Shown here piece by piece: positions 15,036-36,440 of a stretch of 64,000 bases of DNA. Within the stretch, counting starts at the first letter, position 1; each line of letters begins with the position of its first letter. Origin of the DNA: a virus; the IMG/VR virus record IMGVR_UViG_3300042383_000546, positions 20,230-84,229 of that record; one strand, given 5' to 3'. The position numbers and the translations under genes are program-made. The notes under the pieces were generated by a model. The model had not been told where the DNA came from. It searched no databases and was given only the letters and a program-made list of their open reading frames with translations.

Positions 15036-15782
15036 TTAAACTTTTGCGAAGAAATAGATTGTCATAGTAGAAGCACCTACTGTAGCATATCCTGCCAAAG
15101 TACCCGATAAACTATAAAAAGTTACTGTAGTATACCCGCTATCTTGGAACATAGAATAGTTACCTGTGGTGTTACCCGTAAAAGTTCTTGTAAGCACATT
15201 CGCTCCATTGACACCATTTGTCCACGCACTTGTAATTACATTCCCTAATGGATGACCAATAGTAAACTGACTTCCTGAATCAATTGTAAATGACCAACCT
15301 GCTGCACCAATTAAACTTGTACCTACAGGGTCTGTTGCACTTGCTACACTATCTAAAGCACCATTCACAGTATTGATTACAACCGTAAATGTTTTCAAAG
15401 TACCCGCTGCACTCACACCGCTAGTACCTGTAAGACCTGAGCTGCCTGAAGTTCCTGAAGAACCTAAAGCACTCGTTCCTGAAGAACCTGCTGTTCCTGC
15501 TGTGCCACTTACCCCTGAACTTCCTGAAGCACCTGAGCTACCACTTGAGCCACTACTTCCGCTTGAAGCAGACGTACCGCTAGTGCCTGTAAGACCTGCA
15601 GTGCCTGAGCTACCTGAACTTGCAGAAGTGCCTGAGCTGCCACTAGTACCCGAAGTACCCATACCCGAAGTACCACTTGTACCAAAGGTTTGACCACTAG
15701 TACCTGAAGAGCCCGAAGCTCCACCTCCACCGCTACCGCCTGAAGTAAACCCAAAATAGTCTGTGCCTAGAAAGTTGCTCAT
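15036..15782 (-). CDS. Ser/Gly/Thr-repeat virion protein (short fibre-like) with beta-rich C-terminus
   Basis: Same SGTSG repeats as the fibre; adjacent and co-oriented. Confidence 0.7.
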   Translation of the reverse strand: MSNFLGTDYFGFTSGGSGGGGASGSSGTSGQTFGTSGTSGMGTSGTSGSSGTSASSGSSGTAGLTGTSGTSASSGSSGSSGSSGASGSSGVSGTAGTAGSSGTSALGSSGTSGSSGLTGTSGVSAAGTLKTFTVVINTVNGALDSVASATDPVGTSLIGAAGWSFTIDSGSQFTIGHPLGNVITSAWTNGVNGANVLTRTFTGNTTGNYSMFQDSGYTTVTFYSLSGTLAGYATVGASTMTIYFFAKV

Positions 15783-15792
15783 TATAATTTAT

Positions 15793-16191
15793 TTACACTT
15801 TTATTAATTCAGTTAGATATACCTCTTTAACAAATTTACCTGCATTAAATAGAAAGAATCTGCACATTTCGTCATCTTCTTTATCTAAATAAACACAGAC
15901 ATCAACTTGTTCGCTACCCAACTCCTCTTTAAATCCGTTTAAGAACCCTATGATATGTGGGGGAACAAAAACTGTATACCCTTTCAAATCAAATTTTACG
16001 TTCAAAATATCTTTTAAACTAACCTCTTTTACAGGTTGGTTATTGTAACACACTTTATATCCTTCCTCCTCTTCGCCTTTAAGATACAACATTAAAGACA
16101 CTTCACTTTCCTCTTTTTTTGATTCTGCAGCATATCTTTTTATGCCTTTACAGAATATTTTTGTTGCTTCACTGATAATGAAATCTTGCAT
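15793..16191 (-). CDS. Hypothetical protein
   Basis: 132-aa ORF in operon. Confidence 0.7.
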   Translation of the reverse strand: MQDFIISEATKIFCKGIKRYAAESKKEESEVSLMLYLKGEEEEGYKVCYNNQPVKEVSLKDILNVKFDLKGYTVFVPPHIIGFLNGFKEELGSEQVDVCVYLDKEDDEMCRFFLFNAGKFVKEVYLTELIKV

Positions 16192-16222
16192 TTTTATGGT
16201 TTTTTTTTGTGTAAGAAAATAT

Positions 16223-16501
16223 TTATGACTTCGATATAACTATTTCCGCTATGTCCCCTGATGTACCCGCATCAATCGTAACTCCGTCAATCGGGTTAGA
16301 TACAACCGATGCTGTGATTGTAACACCTTGTCCTTCGTTTAAGGTTACAGGGTCAGAAGCAATACCTTGAAATGTACCGCTACCTGCTACTGTTATTGTA
16401 CCTAAACGACAAATAACGCTTAGTCTCACTGCATTGTCTGATGCAGCTACTGATAAGCTATCATTGGTAAGGGTGTATGTCCAAATGTTAGTTGCTCCCA
16501 T
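16223..16501 (-). CDS. Small beta-rich putative virion protein
   Basis: 92 aa; T/S/V/I-rich alternating pattern. Confidence 0.55.
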   Translation of the reverse strand: MGATNIWTYTLTNDSLSVAASDNAVRLSVICRLGTITVAGSGTFQGIASDPVTLNEGQGVTITASVVSNPIDGVTIDAGTSGDIAEIVISKS

Positions 16502-16505
16502 TTTA

Positions 16506-16994
16506 TTATTTTATTAAGTTCTTAAAATTATTTTTATACTCAAAAGGTATGGTTGTCTTTATAAATCCACTTTCCACCTTCACATAGCCTTTTGCCTCAA
16601 AAGTCATATCTTTTGCTGCAATAGTCAGTGTTACTAAATTCACTAAATTACCTAGAACAAGTCTAGGGTCAAAGCTAAATCTATACGTTGCATCTGTAGT
16701 CTTTGCAGGTAAAACAACTATATCTTTCACATCGTTTACGTTACCTACTTTGATACCATTGATAGTAAAATCAAGATACATTTCCTTAATGGTAGCCTCT
16801 ACATTTGAAGCGTTATAGATTCTATTAGTAATGTCCAAAGATATGTTATCCATAGATATTTTAACAACTTTAAGACCTACTACTTGATAAGTAATATCCT
16901 TTAAGAAGTTAATCTGCTGCTTATAATAGCGAACAAGGGCATAACCTATTACGGCTAACCCTGATATTACTAATAGTGGTTTTAAATTTTTCAT
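16506..16994 (-). CDS. Membrane-anchored LEA_2/WHy-like protein
   Basis: N-terminal TM; IYNASNVEATIKEMYLDFTINGIKVG pattern. Confidence 0.6.
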   Translation of the reverse strand: MKNLKPLLVISGLAVIGYALVRYYKQQINFLKDITYQVVGLKVVKISMDNISLDITNRIYNASNVEATIKEMYLDFTINGIKVGNVNDVKDIVVLPAKTTDATYRFSFDPRLVLGNLVNLVTLTIAAKDMTFEAKGYVKVESGFIKTTIPFEYKNNFKNLIK

Positions 16995-17593
16995 TTCTTG
17001 AAAATTAACGCAATTACTACGAGTGCACCTATGCCAATTCCACCGTAAATTAATAAATTTTTGTTTACTCCACCTACAGTTTTTGTATCACCTCCCATAT
17101 CAAGACCAACTAAATCACCTTTTGCTTTGTTCACGCTAGTATCTGATACGGTTGTAAGGGTATCTAAGAGGTCTTTCCTTTCTTTTTCTTTCTTTTCGGC
17201 TTCAGCTTTATTTACGCAATCATACTGATTTCTAAGCATTTTTGCATTAGCTTCTGCCTCAATTGCAAACTTTCTTTGAATAGGTAATTCAAAAGCATTA
17301 CTTGAAGCCATGAGCTTTGTAATTCTTTCTCTTTCTACCATAGCGTCTTGAAGTAGTAAATCAATACCTCCACAGGTTTTTGTATCATATCTAGCCCACT
17401 TTGCTTTAGCGTCTTTCTCTACTTGAGCAATAGACTCTTTACGCTTTTTGCTACCAAATAGGCTATAAAACTGCTCTTCACCTGTAAAACAAGCATATCC
17501 ATTAGTTTTTTCGTCTACAAAGCATCTGTCGTTACCTACTCTTGAAGGAGCTAGAGCACTAAGCTCATTATTTTCAATCATGTCTATAGCCAT
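16991..17593 (-). CDS. Putative virion membrane protein (C-terminal anchor)
   Basis: LLIYGGIGIGALVVIALIFKK end; contains FTGEE motif. Confidence 0.65.
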   Translation of the reverse strand: MAIDMIENNELSALAPSRVGNDRCFVDEKTNGYACFTGEEQFYSLFGSKKRKESIAQVEKDAKAKWARYDTKTCGGIDLLLQDAMVERERITKLMASSNAFELPIQRKFAIEAEANAKMLRNQYDCVNKAEAEKKEKERKDLLDTLTTVSDTSVNKAKGDLVGLDMGGDTKTVGGVNKNLLIYGGIGIGALVVIALIFKK

Positions 17594-17602
17594 AACCTTA
17601 TT

Positions 17603-18112
17603 TTATATTGTGTATTTAATCTTTTTAGCAGCCCAATCCTTATTTATGTTACTTACTCTATAAGAGGTTAAGCCAAAATATTCGTTACCTAATTCCTTCT
17701 TAACATAAGTCAATAAGTCCATTTTATCACCCACAGGTATACCAAAAGCATAGTCCTGACGGCTACCAAATGATTTAATGAGTTTGGCAACATCTAGGTC
17801 ATTTTTCATTTTTTTCAATGAATCTTGAACTGCAGCATAGTCATCACCAACGGCAAATCTCATGCTATTGTATATAGTATTAGCCAAAGTATCATATGTG
17901 CTATCGGGATAACTAGCCTTTTGAAATCTTTGTAGATTTGAAATTTCGCTGTTTATGTTTCTACCTAGTTCAGCGTTTCTTTTTGCCTCTTCCGAAGGAA
18001 ATACAATCGTGTAAAGTTTCTTACCAACGAAAAATAGGGCTGCAGCACCGCCAACTACAACGATACCTTTAGCCCATTGAGGTAAATCTTTATAATACTG
18101 ATATACTTTCAT
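17603..18112 (-). CDS. Membrane-anchored protein with possible annexin-like repeat
   Basis: N-terminal TM; LANTIYNSMRFAVGDDYAAVQDSL...DLLTYVKKEL. Confidence 0.55.
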   Translation of the reverse strand: MKVYQYYKDLPQWAKGIVVVGGAAALFFVGKKLYTIVFPSEEAKRNAELGRNINSEISNLQRFQKASYPDSTYDTLANTIYNSMRFAVGDDYAAVQDSLKKMKNDLDVAKLIKSFGSRQDYAFGIPVGDKMDLLTYVKKELGNEYFGLTSYRVSNINKDWAAKKIKYTI

Positions 18113-18122
18113 AATATTTTTT

Positions 18123-18377
18123 TTATCTTACTGCCCTACCACCCTTAGTATTAATAGTTTTACCATTATACTCAAATGTAGGTATATTGTTTTTTGCTGC
18201 TTTAGACCAAACTCTTAAAAAAGCCATGTCAAACTTTTTAAGGTCTTCTAACGTTCCCGTACTAGCGTCCGCTTTTTTGATTGCTCTAGCATAAGCATTT
18301 TTAGAGAAATACATATAGTAAGCTCCATAAGCTACTACTGCGTAAAGACCAACGTAAAAAACTAATTTTTTATTCAT
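18123..18377 (-). CDS. Small membrane protein
   Basis: N-terminal TM. Confidence 0.65.
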   Translation of the reverse strand: MNKKLVFYVGLYAVVAYGAYYMYFSKNAYARAIKKADASTGTLEDLKKFDMAFLRVWSKAAKNNIPTFEYNGKTINTKGGRAVR

Positions 18378-18386
18378 AACTTTTTT

Positions 18387-18911
18387 TTATATATACCTAA
18401 ATTTATATCCGCTACAAGATTTAGATACACCTCTTAAATTCTGACTTATTGCAGTAGCAGAAACACCAAATTCTTTAGATGTTTCTTTTATGCCATTACA
18501 AAATCTAATATGATTACCTTTTAAATCCATTTGCTCAAATTTAACTCTTAAAAGTAATCCGTTTTTACTTGTATCAATTAATTTATTTTTTATGGCATGG
18601 ACAATTTGCTCTCTATGAGTAGCCCATTCTAAATTTTCAACTCTATTGTCTTTCTTATTACCATTAATATGATTCACAGTTGGTTTTCCATCAGAATTTT
18701 CTATAAATGCTTCAGCAACTAACCTATGAGCAAAAACTAATTTCACACCATCTTCATTTCTAATTTTACATTTTATATAGCCTCTAACATTAGTACCATT
18801 AACTTTTACCCAATTGCCCTCAAGGTTTTTTTGACATAAAGATTTACTATATACATTTCCATGAATATCTACCTTATAGTTCGGGTATTTGTATACAATT
18901 TTGTCTTCCAT
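18387..18911 (-). CDS. HNH homing endonuclease (NUMOD4-HNH-NUMOD1 type)
   Basis: HRLVAEAFIEN..KPTVNHINGNKKDNRVENLEW; C-terminal NUMOD1-like helix; more AT-rich than neighbours. Confidence 0.9.
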   Translation of the reverse strand: MEDKIVYKYPNYKVDIHGNVYSKSLCQKNLEGNWVKVNGTNVRGYIKCKIRNEDGVKLVFAHRLVAEAFIENSDGKPTVNHINGNKKDNRVENLEWATHREQIVHAIKNKLIDTSKNGLLLRVKFEQMDLKGNHIRFCNGIKETSKEFGVSATAISQNLRGVSKSCSGYKFRYI

Positions 18912-18918
18912 CTTATAA

Positions 18919-19722
18919 TTAATTGCCTGAAGCGTAAACGTCTTTAATATTATATTCAGCTATATAGTCCTTAATAAACTTATCGATGATTTGGTATCTT
19001 ATTTTATTTTCGGGACTAGGAAACCCTATAAATGTTTCTCCAAATGCAGCATAAGCCTCCTTGATTGGATAGCCTAAGCCTAAATATATTGTAAGACCGT
19101 TTAAGTCTGCTTCAGTTTCGTTTGCTATATCACTATTCACATAGTAGTGGCTAAACTCATGGAGTAAAATTGCCATTCTCATAGGAATAGTAAAAGGCAC
19201 AAAGGCTTCCTGAGAAACTTGTATTCTACCATTTTTTGTGCTGATACGAGCAGGTGTAGCCATTTTCTGACCTTTACTGCTAATAATAAAAGGTAAATAT
19301 TCAATTTTGAAATTACCTGCAGCACTTACATAATCTTTTTTAGAAGATAACGAACCTGCATTATAACAGAACTTTTGAGCAAAAGCAACGAAGTTTCTTA
19401 CAAGTGGAGTGTCCATTTTGGTTTTACCCAAAGTAATATCTAGCTCCTCTCTTTTTACTTCTAGTACTTCAAAAGTAGGGTCTTCACCCTTTTTCTTATT
19501 ACCATTCTTTTCATTATAGATGTCCAAAATACAAGTGTTTGGAGCTAAAGGCATCCTAACATATAATTCTTGAGTTCCATCTATTGTTTTAGTTCTATTG
19601 GTAAAATAGGTATTAGCCTGACCCTTATCATACACCTTTAATACAATAACTTGAGGACTAGTCGTTTTCACTACTACCTTCACTTTGCAGGGGGCAAATC
19701 TCGTCCACAGGTTATATTGCAT
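18919..19722 (-). CDS. Zinc metallopeptidase (HExxH), candidate virion maturation protease
   Basis: ILLHEFSHY...ETEADLNG zincin motif; located in the structural operon. The role is inferred. Confidence 0.7.
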   Translation of the reverse strand: MQYNLWTRFAPCKVKVVVKTTSPQVIVLKVYDKGQANTYFTNRTKTIDGTQELYVRMPLAPNTCILDIYNEKNGNKKKGEDPTFEVLEVKREELDITLGKTKMDTPLVRNFVAFAQKFCYNAGSLSSKKDYVSAAGNFKIEYLPFIISSKGQKMATPARISTKNGRIQVSQEAFVPFTIPMRMAILLHEFSHYYVNSDIANETEADLNGLTIYLGLGYPIKEAYAAFGETFIGFPSPENKIRYQIIDKFIKDYIAEYNIKDVYASGN

Positions 19723-20017: not shown

Positions 20018-20018
20018 A

Positions 20019-20318: not shown

Positions 20319-20326
20319 ATTTATGT

Positions 20327-20776: not shown

Positions 20777-20777
20777 T

Positions 20778-22951: not shown

Positions 22952-23374
22952 TTATTTTTTAGTTGTTATGATAGCGAAAGCAATTAATACCGCTCCTGCA
23001 AACATTAACATACCTGTTTCCGAAGTTAATTTTTTATTGTCAGCAACTTGTTGTGCTGCTTGAGCTTGAAGCTGACCTGAGAAATTCATGTAAGATTCAA
23101 GAATATTTTTATTTGGATTTGAAGCGGTACAAGTACAGCCATCAGGCTTTTTACCATACTTCTTCTCGAAGTAGTCCATGAACAATTCTTTGTCAGGGTT
23201 ATTTTCGATAATTTCCATTAATACGGGTTCGCCCTCGTAGGACACGAGTTGCTGTAAAACCGAAGAAAGAGGTTGGTCTCTGTCAAATTCGTAGCCATGT
23301 CTATGTGCCAACGATTTCACAAAATATGGATTCGCTGCAGCGGTGTATGCGTATATGTTTACATTACTCGACAT
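22952..23374 (-). CDS. Membrane protein (C-terminal anchor)
   Basis: C-terminal TM followed by KK; start probably at MSSNV. Confidence 0.65.
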   Translation of the reverse strand: MSSNVNIYAYTAAANPYFVKSLAHRHGYEFDRDQPLSSVLQQLVSYEGEPVLMEIIENNPDKELFMDYFEKKYGKKPDGCTCTASNPNKNILESYMNFSGQLQAQAAQQVADNKKLTSETGMLMFAGAVLIAFAIITTKK

Positions 23375-23400
23375 GATATGCAATTTAATGAATTAAAAGT

Positions 23401-23448
23401 AAAAAAGGGCGAAGCTGATATAAAATCTGCTTCAGCCCTTTCTTTTTT
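23401..23448 (-). terminator. Intrinsic terminator downstream of the capsid candidate
   Basis: AAAGGGC-GAAGC...GCTTC-A-GCCCTTT stem; the flanking A-run reads as a U-tract on the minus strand. Confidence 0.75.
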
Positions 23449-23465: not shown

Positions 23466-24164
23466 TTAACGAGCAGCAGGTCTGATAATCTTTGGACTAC
23501 CGTATTGCTTAGAAACAGGGTCTCCGTTTAAGCCACGAGCAATATTGATGTTATCAGAAGGGTAGAATTGGAACTGAACACTTGAACTTGCGAACATAGT
23601 GAAAGTCAATTTAGTGAAGCCATCGATACGGAAAGGTTGTTTCAATTCGATAACACCACTTTGGTTCTGATAAGGGTCAATTACAGGTGTCAAGATTTTA
23701 ACAGCTTGGTTACCGTTAGCGTCTTGAGTAGTTAAAGTAATCGGTTGTAACACTTGACTTGTTGTACCATTTACAGAAGAAATCAAAGTAGAACCGATTG
23801 TGAAAGGGCTTACACTTGATTGGTTAAGTAAGTTGTAATAAGTTGTGTTAGAAAGGTTAGACGTAATGGTTACGTTGTTTACAGTTAAAGAACCTGCAGA
23901 GAAACCTGCATTGTTCAAGTAAACGTAAGCACCAAATACATCTACAGATACTGCAGCGTTTGAAGCGTTAGATACTGTGATGATGTAAGGCTGAGACTTC
24001 ATCATACCTGCTGATGCCATTGGAGCTACTGCAGGTGCTGCGTCAGCAGCGAAGAAATTGTCTGCCCCTGTAAAATAGGTTTCGTCTGCGAAACCATCTA
24101 CACCAATAAACTGCTCGTTAATAGAGCGGTTAGCTTGTTGTAAGTACTTTTGAATACTAGACAT
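23466..24164 (-). CDS. Candidate major capsid protein (jelly-roll-like, 232 aa)
   Basis: Beta-strand-rich; downstream of the packaging ATPase and a small TM gene; followed by a strong terminator; C-ending codons (AAC, TTC, TAC, GAC) suggest high expression. The fold is inferred. Confidence 0.55.
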   Translation of the reverse strand: MSSIQKYLQQANRSINEQFIGVDGFADETYFTGADNFFAADAAPAVAPMASAGMMKSQPYIITVSNASNAAVSVDVFGAYVYLNNAGFSAGSLTVNNVTITSNLSNTTYYNLLNQSSVSPFTIGSTLISSVNGTTSQVLQPITLTTQDANGNQAVKILTPVIDPYQNQSGVIELKQPFRIDGFTKLTFTMFASSSVQFQFYPSDNINIARGLNGDPVSKQYGSPKIIRPAAR

Positions 24165-24221: not shown

Positions 24222-24329
24222 TTAAGCACCAATCTTAGCTTTGTCAAGCAACGGCTTAACTGCTAACATATAAAGGGCTACACCCGCTGTTACTACTAAA
24301 ACTTTACCTGCAAGAGATTTGAAGTCCAT
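24222..24329 (-). CDS. 35-aa single-TM protein (not in ORF track), candidate packaging-vertex membrane protein
   Basis: MDFKSLAGKVLVVTAGVALYMLAVKPLLDKAKIGA, between the ATPase and the capsid candidate. Confidence 0.7.
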   Translation of the reverse strand: MDFKSLAGKVLVVTAGVALYMLAVKPLLDKAKIGA

Positions 24330-24505: not shown

Positions 24506-24542
24506 CAAAAAAAATCCCCAATAGAATTAACTATCAGGGATA
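24506..24542 (-). terminator. Possible terminator after the ATPase
   Basis: ATCCC.AATAG...CTATC.GGGAT imperfect stem with an A-run that reads as a U-tract on the minus strand. Confidence 0.45.
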
Positions 24543-24564: not shown

Positions 24565-25386
24565 CTATCCTATATACTGAGCAAGTAGCCTTCTTTTAAC
24601 TTCAGCTCTTGCCGTATTATCATTATATTTTTTCTTATTCTTTTCGTCTTTGAGCACCAAATAAGGATTTGTAAGAGCTCTAAAGTTTTCGCTAATATAT
24701 TGCTCTACTGCATCTTCAATCATTTCTTGGCTATAGTTACCTCTGATGTTTGATTCGTCCATGTCCACATAACAGTAAAACCTCTTGTTGCCTGAATCGT
24801 ACTGAGTGTTTACCATGATTTCGGCAATACGCATATACTCAAACTTATCAGGGAATTTATTTTTATGCCTTTCAACTGATTCGACATTCTTATGAAATCT
24901 TAATTGGTTTAGATTACCCCAAAGTTTAGTAACAATTCTGCCAATAGACTGATAAGACAGAATAATGTCTAAGCCAACGTGACGATTGGTAGCAATAGCA
25001 CCAACTAAATCAGAAGGCATATGGTCACCGATAAATTTAGAAGGGTCTTCAATGACCAAAAGTCCATTTTTAAAAGTGCTTAATACATAGAACAAAGCCT
25101 GAGCCCATTCGTCTAGTGTCATTCTAGTTCCGTTGGGGTGGAAAGGTCTTATCCTTCTAACTTCTACATGAGGGTGAACAGTAAAAAGACCTACGTCATT
25201 AAGCGACAAAGCTCTGATTCCAAATACTCCATACTCATCGTTTACGTCCATTACAAGAGCCTTACGACCTTTAATGCCATGATAAGGGTCTCCTTCTACA
25301 TATTTGTTTATGGTAATCATGTGAGCCCAAGTTTTTCCCACACCTTTTTTACCAACTGCTGCCATCAATAAAGGTTCTCTTCCCAT
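24565..25386 (-). CDS. FtsK-HerA superfamily genome packaging ATPase (A32/PRD1 P9-like)
   Basis: Walker A GKKGVGKT at the N-terminus, Walker B LLVIED, Arg-finger/Gln motif NRHVGLDIILSYQS; 273 aa; no nuclease domain. Confidence 0.85.
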   Translation of the reverse strand: MGREPLLMAAVGKKGVGKTWAHMITINKYVEGDPYHGIKGRKALVMDVNDEYGVFGIRALSLNDVGLFTVHPHVEVRRIRPFHPNGTRMTLDEWAQALFYVLSTFKNGLLVIEDPSKFIGDHMPSDLVGAIATNRHVGLDIILSYQSIGRIVTKLWGNLNQLRFHKNVESVERHKNKFPDKFEYMRIAEIMVNTQYDSGNKRFYCYVDMDESNIRGNYSQEMIEDAVEQYISENFRALTNPYLVLKDEKNKKKYNDNTARAEVKRRLLAQYIG

Positions 25387-25677: not shown

Positions 25678-26805
25678 TTAATCTAGTCCTTGCATTTGTG
25701 GATTTGGTTTCTCTTTCCCGTCTTTGTCCGTTTCTCTCAAAATTATTGCTTCAGCTATTTCACTTTCGTCAATGTTATTGATATAATCTTTTGGTCTACG
25801 ACCTCTTTTACCACCTGTCTTTCTACTTTTCATAGCCTCTTGATATGAGCTATTGCCACCATTTGCTTTTGCTGCATTTTCACTCCAAATCTTCTCCTTA
25901 GCTCTTTGTTCCATGAGCTTTGCTTTACCCGTTGAAGGAACTTTGTGTTCCGTTACAGTTGAGTTTATTACCGCCTCATTTGAGTTGAAATTATCAAACT
26001 CTTGAGTTGCTTCATAAGTTGGTGTAGGTGTCGGGGTTGGTGTAGGCTTTGGTGCAGATGGTTTAGGTGTTGGTACAGCCCCGCTAGATTTAATAGCTGC
26101 AGTATTTTCTACTAAAGCATTAATCAAATCATTTGCAGTAGATTTCATTTGATAAATGAGAACACTCTTAACTGCAATATCTTTACCAAAAGCAAAGAGT
26201 ACATACTGCTCATCAGTCATACCCGCACCTCTTTTTTCTAGTATTCTTACTAGTGGAGGTTTAACGTCTTTTTTGAACTCTTTAGAAACAACTAAAGTGT
26301 CTTTTGTTTGGTTGTTAAACTCTTCAATAAACTCACCTGCAGAAATAGTAGAACCATCTGCCGTTGGCACTTGAATAGATAAATCTAATTCACCTTCAGC
26401 TTGAAGTTTTTTAATTCTTTTTTCAGGAATTTTCAGGAACATATTTCCCCATGAGTTGATTTGCTCATAGGTATCTAATATGATTGTAGCTAAGTGTTCT
26501 GCACCTGCTTTCTTTTCTGCATCAGTTGCTTGATTCATGGCAGGGTTTACAGGAGCTGATTCGTTTCTACGATTACCTCCACCGCCACCATCACCGCCTA
26601 GCATATCGTATGGGTTATCTCTAGTATTTATTGACTGAGGTTGAAAAGAAGGCTCAGGAATAATAGTAGATAATCGGTCTTGAGAAACAAAACCTGTTGG
26701 CTGACTATATGGTTTATCATTTACGTTGTCACTAAAGGGCATAAACTCCCTTTTAGGTTCTGTAAATGTTTGCTGATTTTGTTGCTGTTCAGTCTGATTT
26801 TCCAT
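25678..26805 (-). CDS. Hypothetical protein (Pro/Thr linker) upstream of the ATPase
   Basis: 375 aa; PTPTPT tract. Confidence 0.7.
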   Translation of the reverse strand: MENQTEQQQNQQTFTEPKREFMPFSDNVNDKPYSQPTGFVSQDRLSTIIPEPSFQPQSINTRDNPYDMLGGDGGGGGNRRNESAPVNPAMNQATDAEKKAGAEHLATIILDTYEQINSWGNMFLKIPEKRIKKLQAEGELDLSIQVPTADGSTISAGEFIEEFNNQTKDTLVVSKEFKKDVKPPLVRILEKRGAGMTDEQYVLFAFGKDIAVKSVLIYQMKSTANDLINALVENTAAIKSSGAVPTPKPSAPKPTPTPTPTPTYEATQEFDNFNSNEAVINSTVTEHKVPSTGKAKLMEQRAKEKIWSENAAKANGGNSSYQEAMKSRKTGGKRGRRPKDYINNIDESEIAEAIILRETDKDGKEKPNPQMQGLD

Positions 26806-27272: not shown

Positions 27273-27674
27273 TTACCAACCTGAAATTATATTTTTTAAT
27301 TTACCGCCATTTTGTTTAAACCACTCTTTGCCTATCACTCTTAGCTTTACATCAGGGTGATATTTAGCCATCCTTTTAATCTTTGTTGCTGACTTTGCAT
27401 CCATGTAGCCCTTTATTTCAATCCATTCCTCTGAGCCACTAGGAAAAATGACCATAAAATCAGGTTTATAGTTATTTGTTCCCCTCTTTATTGCCTCAAA
27501 CCAAAAGGTCTTAGGTTCGTGCTGCCATTCAATTATATGACCATGCTTTTTCATAAACTCCAAATACAAAGCATATCTATATTCCCATCTGCTTCTATAA
27601 AAGTTTCTTTTACCACCAATTTCAGCCCAATCTTGTTTCCAAGTGGACTTACCGTCTTTTAAGTGTATTTGCAT
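27273..27674 (-). CDS. PD-(D/E)xK endonuclease (resolvase/DUF1064-like)
   Basis: RSRWE...YKPDF...WIEIKG. Confidence 0.8.
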   Translation of the reverse strand: MQIHLKDGKSTWKQDWAEIGGKRNFYRSRWEYRYALYLEFMKKHGHIIEWQHEPKTFWFEAIKRGTNNYKPDFMVIFPSGSEEWIEIKGYMDAKSATKIKRMAKYHPDVKLRVIGKEWFKQNGGKLKNIISGW

Positions 27675-28315
27675 TATAGTCCGTATCTAGCTTTGAAATC
27701 TCTGTCTTTTATGATAGTTTCAACACAATAAAGTGAGAAATCGTTATCTGAAGGATAGTGAAGACCCAAATAAATTCTTGAGTATTCAATGTCCTTAGCC
27801 AAAGAATCAAAATAGCCAAACTTCTCAGGGAAGTGATTGCCTAGTACATGGCAAATCAAGGCTGCCTGAAATGTATGACCTGCAGGATATGAGGGTGTTT
27901 CAGCCGAAACTGAACTAAAAGGGAATAGTTTTAATTTGTAGTGCTGTGCTAACTGATAAGGTCTTGGACGCTGAAAATGGTACTTTAATTTAAGTATCAC
28001 AGGCAGACTTTCGTCTATTAGACTATCTACTAGTTCTATGCCTTTGTCCCCTAGTTCCTGATTTATAATAACACTAGCAAATATTCTTTCAATAGAAGGG
28101 TCGTATGACCTATATCTTTTGAGAGCCTCTTCGTCAGCTTTTACATCACCGATATAATCTACTACTTCGTTTAATTCCTCTCTAGTAGCTTTTGAGCTAT
28201 TCAAAGGGAAACCAAACTTGATTAATTGAGGCAAATGTTTATCTAAAGGGCTTTCAACCTCTAAATAAGGTAATTGCCTTTGTGTTGGATTGCCATAGGT
28301 TATAGAATCAAGCAT
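27674..28315 (-). CDS. PAP2 / vanadium-haloperoxidase-like phosphatase
   Basis: KYHFQRPRP, PSYPAGH and SRIYLGLHYPSD (the three PAP2 motifs). Confidence 0.9.
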   Translation of the reverse strand: MLDSITYGNPTQRQLPYLEVESPLDKHLPQLIKFGFPLNSSKATREELNEVVDYIGDVKADEEALKRYRSYDPSIERIFASVIINQELGDKGIELVDSLIDESLPVILKLKYHFQRPRPYQLAQHYKLKLFPFSSVSAETPSYPAGHTFQAALICHVLGNHFPEKFGYFDSLAKDIEYSRIYLGLHYPSDNDFSLYCVETIIKDRDFKARYGL

Positions 28316-30786: not shown

Positions 30787-30787
30787 A

Positions 30788-31387
30788 TTAAGCCATTGTT
30801 GAATGAAATGAATCGAAATGTTTTTGACGGTCAGCCAATCCAATGACCCCGCCATTAACTCGTTTGGTTACTGCAAGTACAACTTCGTGACCATGACCCT
30901 TATCACAAATATCCCATAATTTGTTGGTATGGAAGAAAAAAGCTGCACTCATAAGTGGGTATTTTGTGGCAACTAAATCAGGATTTGCCAAAATATCGTC
31001 TTCTACAAACTTATCAAAAGCTGTATAATTATTCTTTCCTGTAAGTTGGATGTAGCCACGACCTCTAAATTTGTAGCCATCACCACTAGCTTCGTCACCA
31101 TTACCCATACGGTTGCCATACACCTTGTTTGCAATCTTTTCAGGCTGTCTAGCATACTTTGCAGCTAGTTCAGTTGTCGGAAAATATTTAGGGAATATCT
31201 TACGAAGTCCGTCTGCTGAGTAGTTTAGGTTTTCTTTTGTAAACTTAAAATGACCACTTTCATGACCGCATTGAGCCAAGAAGTGACACAACCTCAAAGG
31301 ATTGGTCACACCAAACTTTTCCATAATTGCAGGTATTTCGTCTAATACTGCCTGTGGTAACTTTGTTCCTAATTTTGAAATATCCAT
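30788..31387 (-). CDS. GH19 (chitinase-like) endolysin
   Basis: HFLAQCGHES, ENLNYS, FRGRGYIQLTGKNNY, VTKRVNGG. Confidence 0.92.
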   Translation of the reverse strand: MDISKLGTKLPQAVLDEIPAIMEKFGVTNPLRLCHFLAQCGHESGHFKFTKENLNYSADGLRKIFPKYFPTTELAAKYARQPEKIANKVYGNRMGNGDEASGDGYKFRGRGYIQLTGKNNYTAFDKFVEDDILANPDLVATKYPLMSAAFFFHTNKLWDICDKGHGHEVVLAVTKRVNGGVIGLADRQKHFDSFHSTMA

Positions 31388-31388
31388 G

Positions 31389-31859
31389 TTATTTAATTTG
31401 TGAGAATGCAAAAAATGTAAGAAAAGCGAATAGTATACTATTTAGTCTGTGAAGTTTTAGTTCAAATTCTGTGCTTTTCTCATACTTATTATATATCTCG
31501 ATGTTTTTATAATACCTATTTTTATAATCGTTCAGCGTGTCAAGATTAACTCTGTTTTGTGCTGTAAGCCTTTCTTTTAGTGCGTAGTAGTCAATTTTCT
31601 GTGTGTTTATTTGCCTATTAATTGACGCTATGCTATCAGTATATCTTTCTACATACTTTTTAAAAGTAAGTATAGAGTCTGACTTTATAAAAGACTGCTT
31701 TTCAAGTGAATCAATCATGGTATTGATTGCCCTACCTTGTTTCAGGGTAAGAACAATAACACTATCATTCCCCAATTTTTTAACTACCTGCCCCTTTAAT
31801 AGAGAAGGGCTTACTATCGTCAATGCTATTAGCAGAGTCAAGTTTAGCTTTAGTTTCAT
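31389..31859 (-). CDS. Signal-peptide coiled-coil protein, spanin-like
   Basis: Signal peptide plus C-terminal hydrophobic segment; overlaps the upstream gene; in the lysis cassette. Confidence 0.5.
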   Translation of the reverse strand: MKLKLNLTLLIALTIVSPSLLKGQVVKKLGNDSVIVLTLKQGRAINTMIDSLEKQSFIKSDSILTFKKYVERYTDSIASINRQINTQKIDYYALKERLTAQNRVNLDTLNDYKNRYYKNIEIYNKYEKSTEFELKLHRLNSILFAFLTFFAFSQIK

Positions 31860-32112: not shown

Positions 32113-32113
32113 T

Positions 32114-32458
32114 CTACGGATTTTTAATCTTATTTAATGATTCAAGCATTTCAAATCTTGCACTAGAAGATGCGTTAGAACTATCGAGACTCCTGATAAC
32201 AATAGTTTTCAAAGAGTCCCTGTATTCTAATTTATCTATTCGTACATTTTGCTGTACCGAATTATTTTCAAATATCTTTTTAAGGTCTACATAAACATAA
32301 GCTATGCCTGTAACAGCCAAGAATGCTATTGCTGCCGTTGGCTTTTTGGCAAACTCCTTAAAGCTAATTGGCATTTTAATAGCCCCTGTTGCTGCCTCCA
32401 CTACGCTAGAAGTCTTCTTTCTAACGGGTGCTTTTCTAGTACTTACTGCTTTTGCCAT
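32114..32458 (-). CDS. Single-TM protein (holin/lysis-associated), paralog A
   Basis: FKEFAKKP...IAYVYVDLK...RIDKLEYRDSLKT. Confidence 0.6.
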   Translation of the reverse strand: MAKAVSTRKAPVRKKTSSVVEAATGAIKMPISFKEFAKKPTAAIAFLAVTGIAYVYVDLKKIFENNSVQQNVRIDKLEYRDSLKTIVIRSLDSSNASSSARFEMLESLNKIKNP

Positions 32459-32463
32459 GTCGT

Positions 32464-32781
32464 TTATTTATACGCTGTTATAAAAGCTATTTTATTCATT
32501 TGTTCGGGCTTTATAAGAGCCAAACCGCCCTTTTGCTCCAAGTATTGAACTTTGGTAGTCAAAGACGCTACAGAGCTATCACAATGCCTTATATGCTCAG
32601 TTTTTATGCTGTCTCTATATTCGAGCATTGTTATTCTCTTATCCTGACTATCTGTGTATTTATGAAATGTACCTTTCATATCTGCATAAACGTACACTAT
32701 ACCCATAAGCACAATAAATAGCATAGCTACTATTGGGTTTTTTGCGAATGTTTTGTAGTCCATCGGAGATTTAACTTCCAT
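32464..32781 (-). CDS. Single-TM protein (holin/lysis-associated), paralog B
   Basis: YKTFAKNP...IVYVYADMK...RITMLEYRDSIKT. Confidence 0.6.
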   Translation of the reverse strand: MEVKSPMDYKTFAKNPIVAMLFIVLMGIVYVYADMKGTFHKYTDSQDKRITMLEYRDSIKTEHIRHCDSSVASLTTKVQYLEQKGGLALIKPEQMNKIAFITAYK

Positions 32782-32801
32782 TATTCCTCAGTTTTAGGTT
32801 C

Positions 32802-33551
32802 TTATTTCTTTTTGCCATCCTCTTGAGTGGCATATTTAATACCCATAATTGTTCCAACTATCGAAAAAGCGTTTGTCAGCAACACACTAAACATATTACT
32901 CCAAGTAGAGCCAATTATTTGTGTGTCTTTTCCCGTTATCATAGCCAACCAATATAAAATAGTTGTTACAAGACCAACTCCAATTATAACAGATAAAGCA
33001 ACTTTAACAATAGTTTTTATTAACTCACTTTGACTTTTTTTAATCATCACATCCAAATCATTCAAAGCAGCGTTCTTTTCTATTTCTATTGAATTTTTAA
33101 GTTTTTCAGTGTTATCTAATTGATTTTTCAACTCTTTTGAAAGTTGGTCTATTTCTTTTTTGCTATTGACATTTTCAGTTATGTCAGTAGCAATTTTCAT
33201 TATTTTAGTTATAGTGTTGTTTTCATCGAATATAGGATTGTAAGTTGCTTGTAAATAAATAGCACTACCATCCATTTTCCTTCTTTCAAACTCTCCTTCA
33301 AAGAACTTACCACTTCTTAGTGTTTCCCAAAACTTTTTATACTCTTCTGACTTTGAATATTCGTAACTAACAAATATGCTATGATGTTTTCCTACAAGTT
33401 GTTTGTGGTCTTCATCTTCATATCCCATAGCACTTAAAAATATTGAGTTCATACCCAATATGTAACCATCAAGGTCAAAATATATAATAGCATTACTCCT
33501 ATTTATTGCCTCTAGCCTACTTAGTAACTCTTCCTTTGATAGGTTTCTCAC
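32802..33551 (-). CDS. PAS/PAC-domain protein with two C-terminal TM helices
   Basis: AINRSNAIIYFDLDG...GKHHSIF...FWETLRSG..FEGEFER...LQATYNPI...KIATDIT (chemoreceptor-type PAS). Confidence 0.85.
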   Translation of the reverse strand: MRNLSKEELLSRLEAINRSNAIIYFDLDGYILGMNSIFLSAMGYEDEDHKQLVGKHHSIFVSYEYSKSEEYKKFWETLRSGKFFEGEFERRKMDGSAIYLQATYNPIFDENNTITKIMKIATDITENVNSKKEIDQLSKELKNQLDNTEKLKNSIEIEKNAALNDLDVMIKKSQSELIKTIVKVALSVIIGVGLVTTILYWLAMITGKDTQIIGSTWSNMFSVLLTNAFSIVGTIMGIKYATQEDGKKK

Positions 33552-33553
33552 AA

Positions 33554-33823
33554 CTAATTTTCCTCAGTTTTAGGTTCTTCGGATTTTGCTAAATTCTTAT
33601 TACCAAAAATGGCTTCTGCCCCTGCAATTCCGAGACAGCCAAACGTTGTATACATCAAGCCATTAAATACGATTGGCTCAATCACGAACTCTTTGCGGAG
33701 AGCACCTGTTACTACGTCTGTTAAGCCATAAACAATCATAGTTACAAATGATATAAAACCCACAACTGTTTTAGGGTTAATATCACTTTTGTCAGAAAAC
33801 ATTTTAATCAAAAACTGCTTCAT
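33554..33823 (-). CDS. Two-TM holin-like protein
   Basis: Two hydrophobic segments; start MKQFL. Confidence 0.55.
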   Translation of the reverse strand: MKQFLIKMFSDKSDINPKTVVGFISFVTMIVYGLTDVVTGALRKEFVIEPIVFNGLMYTTFGCLGIAGAEAIFGNKNLAKSEEPKTEEN

Positions 33824-33827
33824 ATAG

Positions 33828-34136
33828 TTAATTTTTATTTTCAACCGATTTTTTCGTACCAAAATAGTACGAGAATATTAGTAATACCAATGTCTTAATC
33901 AGGTCAAAGAGTTGTTTATCTTGTTCGTCATCTAAGAGTTTAATCTTAAATGCAATAATCTTATCTACGACCCAAACACCAACAAGGGCTGTAAATACAA
34001 GTAAAATAAATCTTACAAGTATCTCTTGCGTATCATTGGCGAACATTTTGTTCACGAAATACAAAGAGGATATGATAAATGCTAGTCCTAAAAGAACTGC
34101 AAAAATCATGACATATTGGTTATTCGAGCTAAACAT
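33828..34136 (-). CDS. Three-TM holin-like protein
   Basis: Three hydrophobic segments ending IFSYYFG. Confidence 0.55.
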   Translation of the reverse strand: MFSSNNQYVMIFAVLLGLAFIISSLYFVNKMFANDTQEILVRFILLVFTALVGVWVVDKIIAFKIKLLDDEQDKQLFDLIKTLVLLIFSYYFGTKKSVENKN

Positions 34137-34164
34137 TAGTAATTAAAATTAAGTATATTTTCGG

Positions 34165-34446
34165 TTACCATAAAATTTTGTCTGCGTAAAAACCTGCACT
34201 CCCTCTAACGTGCCTGTCCTTTTCGTGCCTCATTTTATATGCCTTTCTCCTTCTTTTTGCGAACTCAAGACCTTTTTTCTGTTTCCACAAATGAAAGTCA
34301 TTCATTCCCAAAGCTCCGATTGAGGCTATCTTTTCACCTTTGGCATTAAAAACATCAACCTTCTTGCCTTTTACGGTAGAAGGTTTAATGCTTACTCCGA
34401 GCCTCTTGGCTGCAGTGTAACTTGCTTTTGATATTTTATATGCCAT
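34165..34446 (-). CDS. Tlr6F/DUF5754-like basic protein
   Basis: ST.KGKK..V...G..G..DF...RR..Y..RH...SAGFYA..ILW (family pattern recalled, not searched). Confidence 0.7.
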   Translation of the reverse strand: MAYKISKASYTAAKRLGVSIKPSTVKGKKVDVFNAKGEKIASIGALGMNDFHLWKQKKGLEFAKRRRKAYKMRHEKDRHVRGSAGFYADKILW

Positions 34447-34449
34447 AGT

Positions 34450-34956
34450 CTATTTGTCTTTCAAAACTACCCTGCCAAGCGTCACTAGAGCTATCACTCC
34501 ACCTAAAGCCCACCAAACCCAATCTGAACTTTGCTCTTTCTCAATTGCAGGTGCAGGAGTGGGAGTTGGGTCAGGTGTCGGAGTGGGTGCAGGTGTCGGG
34601 GCAGGAGCGGGAGTGGGTACAGGGGGTGTAAGTCCACCTTTTGCAGCCAAATCCTTCTTTGCCTTTCCTTCTAGCATTCTAGCTGTGTTAGCAGCGTAAA
34701 CATCTTTATTTTTAAACCAAAGATTTACTTTACCTACTAGAACGTCATCAGCGTCTTCTACTAGTTTTTGTAATTCCTCTAGTTCTTCTCTTAATTCCTC
34801 TTTGTCTTCGTCATCTACGTCATTGAAATCATTTTGTATGTCTACAAGTGATTCATACTGAGTGTAAAAGTCTTTAATGGCTTTTTTGATTGGCTGTGAC
34901 ATTTGTTCTTTGTCAATGCCTAGTTCTTGGATTTTTTGCTCGAATTTGATGTTCAT
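34450..34956 (-). CDS. Membrane protein (acidic coiled coil, PTPA linker, C-terminal anchor)
   Basis: WVWWALGGVIALVTLG. Confidence 0.7.
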   Translation of the reverse strand: MNIKFEQKIQELGIDKEQMSQPIKKAIKDFYTQYESLVDIQNDFNDVDDEDKEELREELEELQKLVEDADDVLVGKVNLWFKNKDVYAANTARMLEGKAKKDLAAKGGLTPPVPTPAPAPTPAPTPTPDPTPTPAPAIEKEQSSDWVWWALGGVIALVTLGRVVLKDK

Positions 34957-34986
34957 TTTGTTTTATTTTATTGGTTATGTTTTGAA

Positions 34987-35700
34987 TTATAGTGCTTTGT
35001 CCTTATAGATAAGTGCTAAAAACCCGTCTAGACCTAACATTTTAAGTAAATAGCCTCTACTTTCAACAGGTACAGAAGACATTTGTGACAGCGTTGTACT
35101 ATCTATTGGTTCTAAGATTGCTTTTGTTCCTTTACTGATTGCTCTGTTGTAAGCTCCTGCATTGTAAGCAACCATAGCTTTATTAAGCTGACCTCCTGAA
35201 AGAATTGTAGTAAATCTTTCTAAAAGCCATCTTAAAATCATTGTACCTGCCATTACGTTGAAATTAGCATCTCTTTGTAGATTAGACAAAATACTACTTC
35301 TAAGACCTGCCGTTAAGGTTTTAGCCTTTAATAAATCAGGAACTCTTTGATTTAAAAGATTAACACTCTCTTGAGGTAATGGGCTATCGACTTCGCTTCT
35401 CCATTTTCTAGCCACTTCGTATATAGCCGTTGGTGTTACTTGCATAAGACCTGTAGCTTGAAACCTATTAGGAGCTGCCATAGTACCGCCACTTTCAGTA
35501 CCAATAAATCCGATAATCACACCAACAGGTATTTCATACAAAGTAGCCCATTTCTCTATGATTTTACCGTAGTTAGAATTAATCTGTTGAATCATTTTTA
35601 TGTTAGCAGCCTTAACTGATGGGGTGCTGTAATTATAAGTCCCTGCCTTAAATGAAGTTTTAATATCAGGAACTTTTAAAAATATCTTGGAGTAAGCCAT
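34987..35700 (-). CDS. Lytic transglycosylase (SLT, GH23)
   Basis: TESGG, ATGLMQV, AYNAG motifs. Confidence 0.9.
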   Translation of the reverse strand: MAYSKIFLKVPDIKTSFKAGTYNYSTPSVKAANIKMIQQINSNYGKIIEKWATLYEIPVGVIIGFIGTESGGTMAAPNRFQATGLMQVTPTAIYEVARKWRSEVDSPLPQESVNLLNQRVPDLLKAKTLTAGLRSSILSNLQRDANFNVMAGTMILRWLLERFTTILSGGQLNKAMVAYNAGAYNRAISKGTKAILEPIDSTTLSQMSSVPVESRGYLLKMLGLDGFLALIYKDKAL

Positions 35701-35710
35701 CTATATAATT

Positions 35711-35857
35711 TTAAGCGTCTTTGTTATCGTCTTCTACTTCAATGGTAAAAGAACCTTCTTTAATCTTTGTAGTGTTTTTCTTAGCTACAATTTTAGTGTA
35801 AGCAAAGTAGCCTAAACCTAAGATTGCAAGACCGATTACGATGTTTTTTAAATTCAT
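35711..35857 (-). CDS. 48-aa single-TM protein (not in ORF track)
   Basis: MNLKNIVIGLAILGLGYFAYTKIVAKK... Confidence 0.7.
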   Translation of the reverse strand: MNLKNIVIGLAILGLGYFAYTKIVAKKNTTKIKEGSFTIEVEDDNKDA

Positions 35858-35858
35858 T

Positions 35859-36440
35859 TTATTTCTTTTTTATGTACAAATATATTCCAAGTCCTAATAG
35901 TAAAATGCCTAAACCTAGCCCTTTCTTGTTTTTTCCCACAAATTCCACTATTTGTGCCCTTAGCATTCGTGCTTTTAGACCTCCCGCATATTCAGATATT
36001 TCCTTTTCTGCTTGAGGTGTACCATAAGCTCCAAAACCATAGTATCTTCTCTTTTTAAGTAGTCTTGAAAACTCCTCAGGTGTTTTTGCATTTTTCAGTT
36101 GCTCAGGGGTTACACCACCCATAGTCTTACTATAAAGCCTAACTATTTTATCGGTAGCACTATCCTGAACTGAGCGGAACTTTGCATAGTGGTCTGAGTT
36201 TTTGCATTCACCACCACTTCTGCAAGATGCACTCCTTTCGTTTGTAGGTGCAAGTGTACCTCTAGTAGCTAACGGCTGACCAATGAATTTCATACCGCTA
36301 GTATTGTTATTTGCTTTGAATACTGCTGATGTATAGTTAGCACTCTCAAAACGAGCTTGTCCTACCACAAACTTAGCTGCAGTAGGAGTAAAGCCCTGTT
36401 TAATAGCGGTATCGTATATTATTTGGTCGTAGTTAGCCAT
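35859..36440 (-). CDS. GH73/glucosaminidase-like muralytic enzyme with C-terminal membrane anchor
   Basis: QARFESANY...NNTSGMK...YAKFRS; C-terminal TM followed by KKK. Confidence 0.7.
   Translation of the reverse strand: MANYDQIIYDTAIKQGFTPTAAKFVVGQARFESANYTSAVFKANNNTSGMKFIGQPLATRGTLAPTNERSASCRSGGECKNSDHYAKFRSVQDSATDKIVRLYSKTMGGVTPEQLKNAKTPEEFSRLLKKRRYYGFGAYGTPQAEKEISEYAGGLKARMLRAQIVEFVGKNKKGLGLGILLLGLGIYLYIKKK

Follow-up and report, generated by a model that had tools for sequence, protein, structure and literature searches.

The stretch of DNA described here, called the window throughout, comprises bases 20230-84229 (64,000 nucleotides) of the 84,229-bp IMG/VR virus record IMGVR_UViG_3300042383_000546, and our analysis centres on a block of genes at window positions 15036-36440 that encodes a packaging-type ATPase, a single jelly-roll protein and many small membrane proteins. 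Taken together, the gene content, fold predictions and comparative data suggest that this block serves as the morphogenesis module in a freshwater phage, probably of Bacteroidota, with an 84-kb double-stranded DNA genome and a particle that is most likely a tailless shell over a virus-modified lipid vesicle, similar to those of PRD1, PM2, P23-77 and SSIP-1; we hold this to be the likely reading rather than an assured one. The 20 kb upstream of the window (locus L001) were analysed together with it, and all positions below are those of the window unless stated otherwise. Nearly all genes in 4739-63676, and all genes in 15036-36440, lie on the minus strand. An initial annotation had proposed an unusually large tailless, membrane-containing virus from an A32/P9-type ATPase, a 35-amino-acid (aa) transmembrane gene and a 232-aa beta-rich gene with a strong terminator, and every one of these features is present in the sequence.

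Gene presence was scored by tblastn in 73 related IMG/VR loci collected via the ATPase, and comparisons were also made with five near-complete related records (84-102 kb, rated by CheckV as viruses 90-100% complete). In whole-genome comparison a collinear conserved core is common to this genome and its 84.7-kb and 101-kb relatives (G003 and G001). The genes and signals at the centre of the module are as follows.

24565..25386, minus strand: 273-aa FtsK-HerA-type ATPase, putative genome-packaging motor (motifs, fold, profile match)
24514..24541, minus strand: terminator-like hairpin 3' of the ATPase gene (11 pairs, then TTTTTTTGCT)
24222..24329, minus strand: predicted 35-aa single-pass membrane protein (one hydrophobic segment, residues 8-24)
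23466..24164, minus strand: 232-aa single jelly-roll protein, candidate major coat protein (AlphaFold2 model, gene position, conservation)
about 23399..23442, minus strand: intrinsic terminator 3' of the 232-aa gene (hairpin and U-run, then UUUUUUACUUUU)
22952..23383, minus strand: 143-aa tail-anchored membrane protein of the conserved core (C-terminal hydrophobic segment; 56/73 loci; conserved in G003 and G001)

A packaging-type ATPase

The 273-aa protein carries a Walker A motif (GKKGVGKT) and a Walker-B-like motif (LLVIED) and is found in 73/73 related loci. It has no Pfam or PHROG family match of its own, and 7 of its 120 listed homologues carry the HerA central domain (PF01935). A profile of 24 homologues searched against PDB chain sequences gave as its best hit a Walker A match to ClpB (E 0.061), and as that sequence search was fruitless a fold search was needed. 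The AlphaFold2 model, built from a 42-row alignment, has a predicted local distance difference test score (pLDDT) of 91.0 and a predicted template modelling score of 0.86. With this model, ranks 1-15 in Foldseek were all the STIV/STIV2 genome-packaging NTPase B204 (E 3.8e-9 to 7.8e-8), followed by F1 ATPase (3.6e-6), the Zot N-domain (4.3e-6) and HerA (1.4e-5). Similarly, VIA-align against 48,161 chains placed STIV2 B204 (4kfr_A) at the top, with Z 18.3 and a root-mean-square deviation (rmsd) of 2.5 over 187/204 residues, above HerA (16.1), DndH-C (16.1), VirB4 (15.3), TrwB (12.8), Zot (11.4) and FtsK (10.7). Moreover, in hhalign the ATPase profile aligned almost end to end with P23-77 ORF13, a putative packaging ATPase (probability 88.1, E 3e-6, 184 columns), while a control P-loop protein of the same genome reached a probability of 4.4. 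Given the B204 matches and the P23-77 profile match, the modelled enzyme is best placed in the FtsK-HerA superfamily, nearest to virion packaging enzymes of the B204/P9 kind. This agrees with the viral packaging type first proposed for it, and the grouping with Zot or conjugation ATPases that would have spoken against this was not seen, B204 standing about 2 Z units above even HerA and DndH-C.

A single jelly-roll protein beside the ATPase

The AlphaFold2 model of the 232-aa protein (79 diverse rows, mean pLDDT 84.7, residues 18-34 below 50) consists of an N-terminal helix (residues 3-17), a low-confidence acidic linker (18-54) and one eight-stranded beta sandwich at about 55-225. This favours a single jelly roll over a double one, as had been anticipated from the length of the protein. 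The gene was detected in 62/73 related loci, and its family numbers 525 proteins at E<=1e-3 among 90%-identity clusters, on contigs of up to 84 kb, or 549 representatives at the 50%-identity level, 258 of them below 1e-10. Each of the five near-complete records has exactly one full-length copy, 0.4-3.5 kb from its single ATPase gene. No other conserved beta-rich open reading frame (ORF) of coat size was found in the comparison with G003 and G001, where the upstream 333-aa and 335-aa ORFs are not conserved. The 333-aa ORF, which lies beside the paralogue described below, was considered as a hidden double jelly roll and rejected, being unrelated to the jelly-roll profile and absent from the conserved set of both relatives.

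Structural comparison identifies the fold class of this model and goes no further. Foldseek gave no PDB match at E<=0.001, its top entries being STMV and comovirus coats, TNF and nucleoplasmin, and five matches at E<=0.001 in BFVD, all with a TM-score of at most 0.30 and with mixed annotations. About 20 of the best 50 VIA-align matches are virus capsid or penton chains (Z 4.2-5.8), including those of PR772, PBCV-1, PM2, FLiP, phiCjT23, STMV, PRD1 P3 and STIV A223, and the list is headed by a PR772 chain of 124 residues, equal in size to penton P31. These matches to the model are those of a generic jelly roll, with scores that indicate a common arrangement and no more. Coat chains of the Helvetiavirae type (P23-77 and others) are absent among the 50 rows listed in either VIA-align search, which is no evidence of a difference. 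A homotrimer prediction for residues 50-232, run without controls, scored 0.00 and 0.13 against a mark of 0.42 and counts neither way. We still regard the 232-aa protein as a candidate coat protein on account of its position, conservation, copy pattern, lack of a competitor and a hint of expression considered below.

The same domain occurs elsewhere in these genomes. A true paralogue is encoded about 6.4-6.9 kb before the window by a 165-aa ORF at genome positions 13359-13856 (hhalign probability 97.6, E 3.2e-12, 98 columns); it has the motifs DPYQ and DG-x-T/S-x-LTF in common with the 232-aa protein. All five near-complete records encode at least one such short paralogue (156-169 aa), about 30 kb from the full-length gene; as speculation, it might serve at the vertices or as the second constituent of the capsomers. 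Two complete tandem copies are found in the database proteins P0258 (397 aa) and P0379 (456 aa), the latter with no locus among the viral contigs. The 102-kb relative G005 encodes a P0258-like 397-aa tandem protein (L076 10001-11194), with a homologue of an HNH endonuclease adjoining its gene, and holds six copies of the domain in all, so that the family is expanded there. The tandem protein was examined as a possible main coat and rejected: G005 also has an ordinary 233-aa form near its ATPase, which makes the tandem form an extra paralogue.

Gene order, terminators and membrane proteins

On the minus strand the order is ATPase, 35-aa membrane gene, 232-aa jelly roll and then small membrane proteins. 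PM2 shows the same order (ATPase P9, 34-aa P7, coat P2, then P3, P4 and P8), as does PRD1 (ATPase P9, gpi, P20, coat P3, then P22 onward), and that of P23-77 is close to it (ORF13, ORF14, VP15, then coats VP16 and VP17). The 35-aa gene, detected by tblastn in 13/73 loci, thereby occupies the position of PM2 P7 and of PRD1 gpi and P20. The hairpin 3' of the ATPase gene (24541-24514) is followed by a 235-bp spacer before the 35-aa gene, and it is predicted to separate the ATPase gene from the next transcription unit. Downstream of the 232-aa gene, the terminator at 23399-23442 has a folding energy of -22.4 kcal/mol (z -5.7; 0/200 shuffles fold as well); a simple terminator scan missed this hairpin because its loop exceeds 8 nt.

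A crude Kyte-Doolittle scan of minus-strand ORFs of at least 33 aa found a hydrophobic segment in 28/48 ORFs within 15036-36440 versus 11/69 outside. Just one segment was seen in 22 of these 28 membrane-type ORFs, and 11 have their last segment at most 12 residues from the C-terminus, mostly ahead of a K-rich end, which bears out the earlier count of more than 20 small single-pass proteins, many of them tail-anchored with a lysine end.

Weighing the alternatives

A hint that the 232-aa gene is strongly expressed comes from four freshwater metatranscriptome runs of four studies, whose contigs were compared with window 16000-35999. The contig over this gene had a depth of 121, 221.6, 29.5 and 145 in the four libraries, and contigs over the 375-aa gene (25678-26805) or the ATPase gene had 11.6, 4.7-5.7, none listed and 2.85 in the same runs, a ratio of 5-78 to neighbouring core genes, to be read with the reservation that the depth of RNA contigs cannot rank genes and that DNA may occur in RNA libraries. 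The deep contigs end at 24233-24379, within the spacer downstream of the ATPase terminator. They derive from relatives at 88-95% identity and not from this strain. A second deep bin, at 28006-28672, has depths of 73, 257.8 and 126.2 in three libraries and 7 in the fourth; it spans the end of a PAP2-family gene and the start of a gene for a 142-aa N-terminally anchored protein, in a region where some relatives show a joint that skips 28344-28986.

These reservations about the RNA contigs, and the second deep bin, weigh against our interpretation, and so do several other observations. Both the tailless shape and the membrane are read from gene content. No particular capsid stands out among the structural matches of the 232-aa model, the best of which combines Z 5.8 with an rmsd of 10.6; the capsids are equalled in score by nucleoplasmins, TNF-family ligands, Ena pili and a channel domain, and jelly-roll domains of this kind also form fibre heads. 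In hhalign the 232-aa profile did not exceed a probability of 0.5 against PRD1 P3 and P31, PM2 P2, P23-77 VP16 and VP17 or five SSIP-1 structural proteins, and the ATPase profile matched the single sequences of PRD1 P9, PM2 P9 and SSIP-1 gp40 in the Walker A region only (probabilities 9.4, 20.2 and 8.5). The record is classed as linear, at about 90% CheckV completeness. Tailed phages commonly have polyvalent proteins and collagen fibres that bear S74 domains; the 248-aa protein at 15036-15782 matches collagen-type 'tail fiber' PHROGs (best 3.1e-10), the only tail-labelled matches, and the automatic Atlas taxa of relatives of the 375-aa protein are mostly Uroviricota.

The last of these points raise the possibility that the virus is a tailed phage (Caudoviricetes) with terminase, portal, HK97 capsid and tail genes too divergent for profiles to detect, its small ATPase serving another role. 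Its S74 collagen fibres, polyvalent LPD1 and ART proteins, RecT, HNH and methylases are all typical of tailed phages, and to the 'tail fiber' matches and Uroviricota labels can be added a 'head closure' PHROG match (2.6e-9) of the 133-aa protein at 27273-27674. That match is secondary, however, being outscored by resolvase and endonuclease families (a Holliday-junction-resolvase PHROG at 3.3e-18), and Pfam finds the protein DUF1064/TnsA-like. Moreover, seven hallmark Pfam models (TerL_ATPase, Terminase_6C, Terminase_3, Phage_portal, SPP1_portal, Phage_capsid and Phage_cap_E; accessions PF03354, PF17289, PF04466, PF04860, PF05133, PF05065 and PF03864) had no match at E<=1 in six-frame searches of the near-complete records (0/5), and an eighth, Terminase_6N (PF03237), had none at E<=1 in this genome's own record (0/1), whereas control genomes were matched in these searches. 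None of the 49 proteins scanned with Pfam or the 30 scanned with PHROGs matched a terminase, portal, capsid, sheath, tube or tape-measure family; very divergent forms of the terminase, portal and HK97-fold capsid that define Caudoviricetes may escape such searches. The absence of TerL, portal and HK97 capsid genes, first noted for the 64 kb, likewise holds for the 20 kb of the contig outside the window and for four to five near-complete relatives. The ORFs of at least 400 aa are the collagen fibre, three giant proteins (2093, 833 and 1366 aa), a 410-aa glycosyltransferase, two DNA methylases and an unscanned glycosyltransferase-like ORF of 898 aa, which leaves no room for an ordinary large terminase or portal. 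With a conserved core composed of a B204-like ATPase and a jelly roll, we consider a tailed phage very improbable.

Two further explanations concern the jelly-roll protein and the particle itself. The virus might be tailless and membrane-containing while the 232-aa protein serves as a vertex, spike-head or decoration protein, the shell being built from, for instance, the 2093-aa products or the 375-aa protein. This is compatible with the generic fold matches, which include fibre-head-like TNF/C1q folds and penton-sized chains such as the PR772 chain at the top of the VIA-align list, and with the six domain copies of one relative, among them a tandem form encoded apart from the ATPase, a pattern more usual for accessory proteins. 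Nevertheless, among the conserved beta-rich proteins the 232-aa one alone has a suitable size, its gene sits exactly at the coat-gene position of PRD1, PM2 and P23-77, and it has its own terminator, the deepest RNA-library contigs and one full-length copy near the ATPase in 5/5 records, so that we think an accessory role unlikely. The least credence goes to an element without a shell, either a pleomorphic vesicle-type virus or a mobile element that moves its DNA by vesicles or by a HerA/VirB4-like translocase, with the jelly roll as a surface or fusion-spike domain. HerA, DndH-C and VirB4 do follow B204 closely in Z score, the region is very rich in membrane proteins, smaller relatives reside in bacterial chromosomes and the 232-aa protein is a candidate coat protein only; but the ATPase is a minimal one-domain enzyme of B204 size that matches a virion packaging ATPase over nearly its full length, the gene order equals that of three icosahedral membrane phages, the related records cluster at 84-102 kb as near-complete viruses, and general Pfam scans turned up no relaxase or other conjugation family.

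Proposed particle and its place among viruses

For the tailless, membrane-lined phage that we favour, the following assembly can be proposed. The 232-aa single jelly-roll protein, with its fold, paralogy, conservation and adjacency to the ATPase, would form the shell, and the short paralogue might form the vertices or a second capsomer type. The roughly 28 small, mostly single-pass and often tail-anchored proteins would populate the internal membrane. The B204/P23-77-like ATPase, for which fold, profile match and gene order agree, would dock at one vertex and pump the genome into a preformed particle through a conduit to which the 35-aa product and other tiny membrane proteins may contribute. 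Host recognition would fall to collagen-like fibres with their S74 chaperone, entry and lysis to membrane-anchored and soluble peptidoglycan hydrolases, and an HExxH protein may process structural proteins. We infer membership of Varidnaviria from the ATPase, gene order and fold class, since the tailless, icosahedral and lipid-containing particle, the vertical orientation of the jelly roll and the major-coat role are themselves predictions.

A bolder proposal, which we offer tentatively and think rather doubtful as it stands, is that these freshwater viruses of 65-102 kb represent a lineage of tailless membrane-lined phages, as yet undescribed and of order rank or higher, in which one single jelly-roll protein alone forms six-barrel capsomers, and that they make up part of the unexplained non-tailed particles of natural waters, mislabelled as tailed by automatic pipelines. 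Capsomers of six barrels from a single protein are the simple state long proposed to have preceded the two-protein and double-barrel shells of Varidnaviria. If our favoured reading of a tailless membrane-lined phage holds, the bacterial size range of this architecture would be roughly doubled, its coat protein family would be unlike any known one, and automatic pipelines would be filing genomes of this kind among the tailed phages. A possible laboratory handle is the related smaller element of Fluviicola chungangensis MAH-3, which is in culture.

Probable host and habitat

The sampled words of this sequence are present at 64-100% in 14 DNA runs, all from different studies and labelled lake water, freshwater or 'metagenome'; four of these runs may be the source sample. 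Alignment of the ATPase against 185,579 species genomes gave 26 loci, 13 of them labelled Bacteroidota and the remainder scattered over many phyla, mostly on short contigs of metagenome-assembled genomes that may be mis-binned virus. On contigs longer than 200 kb (35-39% ATPase identity), 4/5 loci belong to Flavobacteriales, namely Crocinitomicaceae, two Parvicellaceae chromosomes and the isolate Fluviicola chungangensis MAH-3, and the fifth is labelled Glaciecola amylolytica. The jelly-roll profile matches 16/26 ATPase loci, including those of Fluviicola (L091) and Glaciecola (L094), where a jelly-roll gene of 238-240 aa lies at most 8 kb from the ATPase gene (38-39% identity). Although labelled as different phyla, these two loci share about 75% DNA identity in their core parts and a guanine-plus-cytosine (GC) content of 36-37%, and the Glaciecola label is treated with caution. 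A 375-aa-like gene adjoins the ATPase gene in the chromosomal relatives L090, L091 and L094 as well. From their sequences the chromosomal relatives look like much smaller resident elements. The Fluviicola MAH-3 contig8 (L091, about 1-11000) and the Glaciecola THG-3.7 chromosome (L094, about 1-11000) also carry AbiC-like, PLD-like and DUF6908 genes.

Shine-Dalgarno use is rare in Bacteroidota. Here, Shine-Dalgarno-like tetramers precede 5/114 ORFs versus an in-gene background of 11%, with ORF starts uncurated; the counts are 7/98 and 2/140 in two relatives, 3/58 in SSIP-1, 5/24 in PRD1, 5/18 in PM2 and 4/20 in P23-77. This depletion fits a Bacteroidota host. The host first suggested is thus plausible, with 4/5 long-contig relatives in Flavobacteriales and Shine-Dalgarno motifs depleted, and it stops short of proof. 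The Bacteroidota -7 motif TAnnTTTG was tried as host evidence and set aside, with 49 occurrences on the minus strand versus 41 expected and 2 in 4,730 intergenic bases, about chance; one such motif lies 66 nt upstream of the 35-aa/coat operon.

The genome record

The 84,229-bp record has a GC content of 0.356, no direct or inverted terminal repeats and, within the 64-kb window, no tRNA genes. The first 114 bases of the genome recur as an exact reverse complement at genome 83325-83438 (window 63096-63209), 791 bp from the right end, and in G003 the final 50 bases are the reverse complement of its own bases 440-489, so that both contigs break exactly at an inverted repeat. This arrangement fits a circular map with a short, repeat-flanked and possibly invertible segment. 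The candidate segment has iteron-like direct repeats at 63373, 63595 and 63804, and also at 63506/63533. Replication and recombination genes (RecT, an initiator-like fragment and methylases) lie outside the structural module, and no DNA polymerase was seen in Pfam and PHROG scans of this genome's proteins. Searches with 5 kb of the DNA, the ATPase and the 232-aa protein found zero matches among 50,697 public phage records, and no tailless phage lineage of such size was found described in a full-text literature that includes few subscription journals.

Other genes of the module and its surroundings

Further members of the conserved core, predicted enzymes and fibre proteins of the region are listed here.

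25678..26805, minus strand: 375-aa conserved core protein with a Pro/Thr linker and basic C-terminus (71/73 loci)
27674..28315, minus strand: 213-aa PAP2-superfamily phosphatase of the conserved core (PF01569, E 1.9e-9; 68/73 loci)
18919..19722, minus strand: 267-aa HEFSH-motif protein, possible zincin-type maturation protease (motif in translation; 54/73 loci)
34165..34446, minus strand: 93-aa basic conserved core protein (57/73 loci, median identity 58%; no Pfam match)
34987..35700, minus strand: predicted 237-aa lytic transglycosylase (PF01464 SLT, E 1.6e-12; 30/73 loci)
35859..36440, minus strand: 193-aa glucosaminidase with a C-terminal membrane anchor (PF01832, E 3.1e-7; segment 173-189 before the ending IKKK)
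30788..31411, minus strand: 207-aa GH19-type muramidase/chitinase-like enzyme (PF00182, E 6.1e-7)
16506..16994, minus strand: 162-aa protein with an N-terminal anchor and LEA_2-like beta domain (PF03168, E 2.7e-5, just under the cut-off; 24/73 loci; conserved in G003 and G001)
15036..15782, minus strand: 248-aa collagen-like (G-x-x repeat) protein with a beta-rich C-terminal head (PF01391, E 3.7e-7)
6586..15027, minus strand: 2813-aa collagen-repeat fibre, putative host-recognition fibre, left of 15036 (Collagen, E 9.5e-44 in 8 stretches)
36440..42721, minus strand: 2093-aa protein with no Pfam or PHROG family (adjoins polyvalent proteins at 42759-49363)

Neither the 375-aa core protein nor the 267-aa HEFSH protein has a Pfam or PHROG match. 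The Kyte-Doolittle scan found no hydrophobic segment in the PAP2 protein, which makes a lipid substrate for it only a possibility. The 2813-aa fibre ends in a Peptidase_S74 intramolecular-chaperone domain (residues 2725-2774, E 2.6e-6). The three giant proteins stand in a row at 36440-49363, the 2093-aa protein being followed by one of 833 aa with LPD1 and one of 1366 aa with ART-PolyVal, DUF5661 and DUF5824; these neighbours (42759-49363) carry PF18796 and PF18760. The 249-aa protein at 32802-33551 combines a PAS domain at its N-terminus (E 2.8e-12) with two C-terminal membrane segments and is 70% identical to its counterpart in the 101-kb relative; such a sensor domain is unusual inside a virion module. 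An HNH_3/NUMOD-type homing endonuclease is encoded among the structural genes at 18387-18911, and a GIY-YIG-like ORF lies upstream (L001 19541-20218). A large set of glycosyltransferase, sulfotransferase, APS-kinase-like, PAPS-reductase and PhyH dioxygenase genes occupies window 90-5632 and 49645-54629 and L001 9063-19537 and surrounds Ser/Gly/Thr-rich fibre genes; this suggests that the virus may encode its own glycan or sulfate modification.

Comparison with known tailless membrane phages

That the characterised internal-membrane viruses have much smaller genomes, as first remarked, holds for the GenBank records that we fetched, which measure 10,079 bp (PM2), 14,927 bp (PRD1), 17,036 bp (P23-77) and 43,788 bp (SSIP-1). 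At 84,229 bp the present genome is 1.9 times the size of SSIP-1, and its relatives reach 101-102 kb. Excerpts of PMC11071308 give genomes below 50 kbp for Preplasmiviricota, and literature excerpts likewise give about 30 kbp for Sphaerolipoviridae and 16-19 kb for Simuloviridae.

The known coats fall into two kinds. Those of PRD1 and PM2 are double jelly rolls according to PMC6356626, those of P23-77 are single jelly-roll proteins according to PMC4958249, and SSIP-1 is grouped with the two-coat-protein, single-barrel viruses in passages of PMC6356626 and PMC4958249. The AlphaFold2 model of the 232-aa protein would accord with the single jelly roll of Helvetiavirae such as P23-77 and SH1; for Bamfordvirae (Tectiviridae, Corticoviridae and kin) the coat candidate has one barrel instead of two, and no other conserved ORF is suitable. 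P23-77 (Matshushitaviridae, Helvetiavirae) has a transglycosylase and a PAPS reductase in common with our genome, but it carries two adjacent coat genes, VP16 and VP17, where one full-length gene and a short paralogue about 30 kb away are found here, and its coat proteins align with the 232-aa profile at hhalign probabilities of 0.1-0.5.

SSIP-1, the largest tailless membrane phage compared, is circular, infects a host related to Bacteroidota, encodes a giant structural protein (gp43, 2319 aa) and is similarly depleted in Shine-Dalgarno motifs. In sequence the two have only a PAPS reductase (E 4.75e-9) and a weak SLT match in common; when 38 SSIP-1 proteins were searched by hmmsearch with the ATPase and coat profiles no E-value fell below 0.43, hhalign probabilities were at most 8.5, and GC content is 57% there and 36% here.

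STIV and STIV2 (Turriviridae) infect archaea and have a far smaller genome and a double jelly-roll coat. Their B204 is the best structural match of our ATPase, both being minimal one-domain FtsK-HerA-type enzymes, at 16-19% identity and with about 55 extra C-terminal helical residues (219-273) of our protein lying outside the matched part. PRD1 has a protein-primed polymerase, and none was seen here. Cell-wall enzymes, finally, are a common thread: PRD1 and P23-77 encode transglycosylases and lysozymes, PRD1 P7 and P23-77 ORF31 being annotated as transglycosylases and P23-77 VP29 as virion-associated, and both PRD1 and PM2 carry peptidoglycan hydrolases in their virions.

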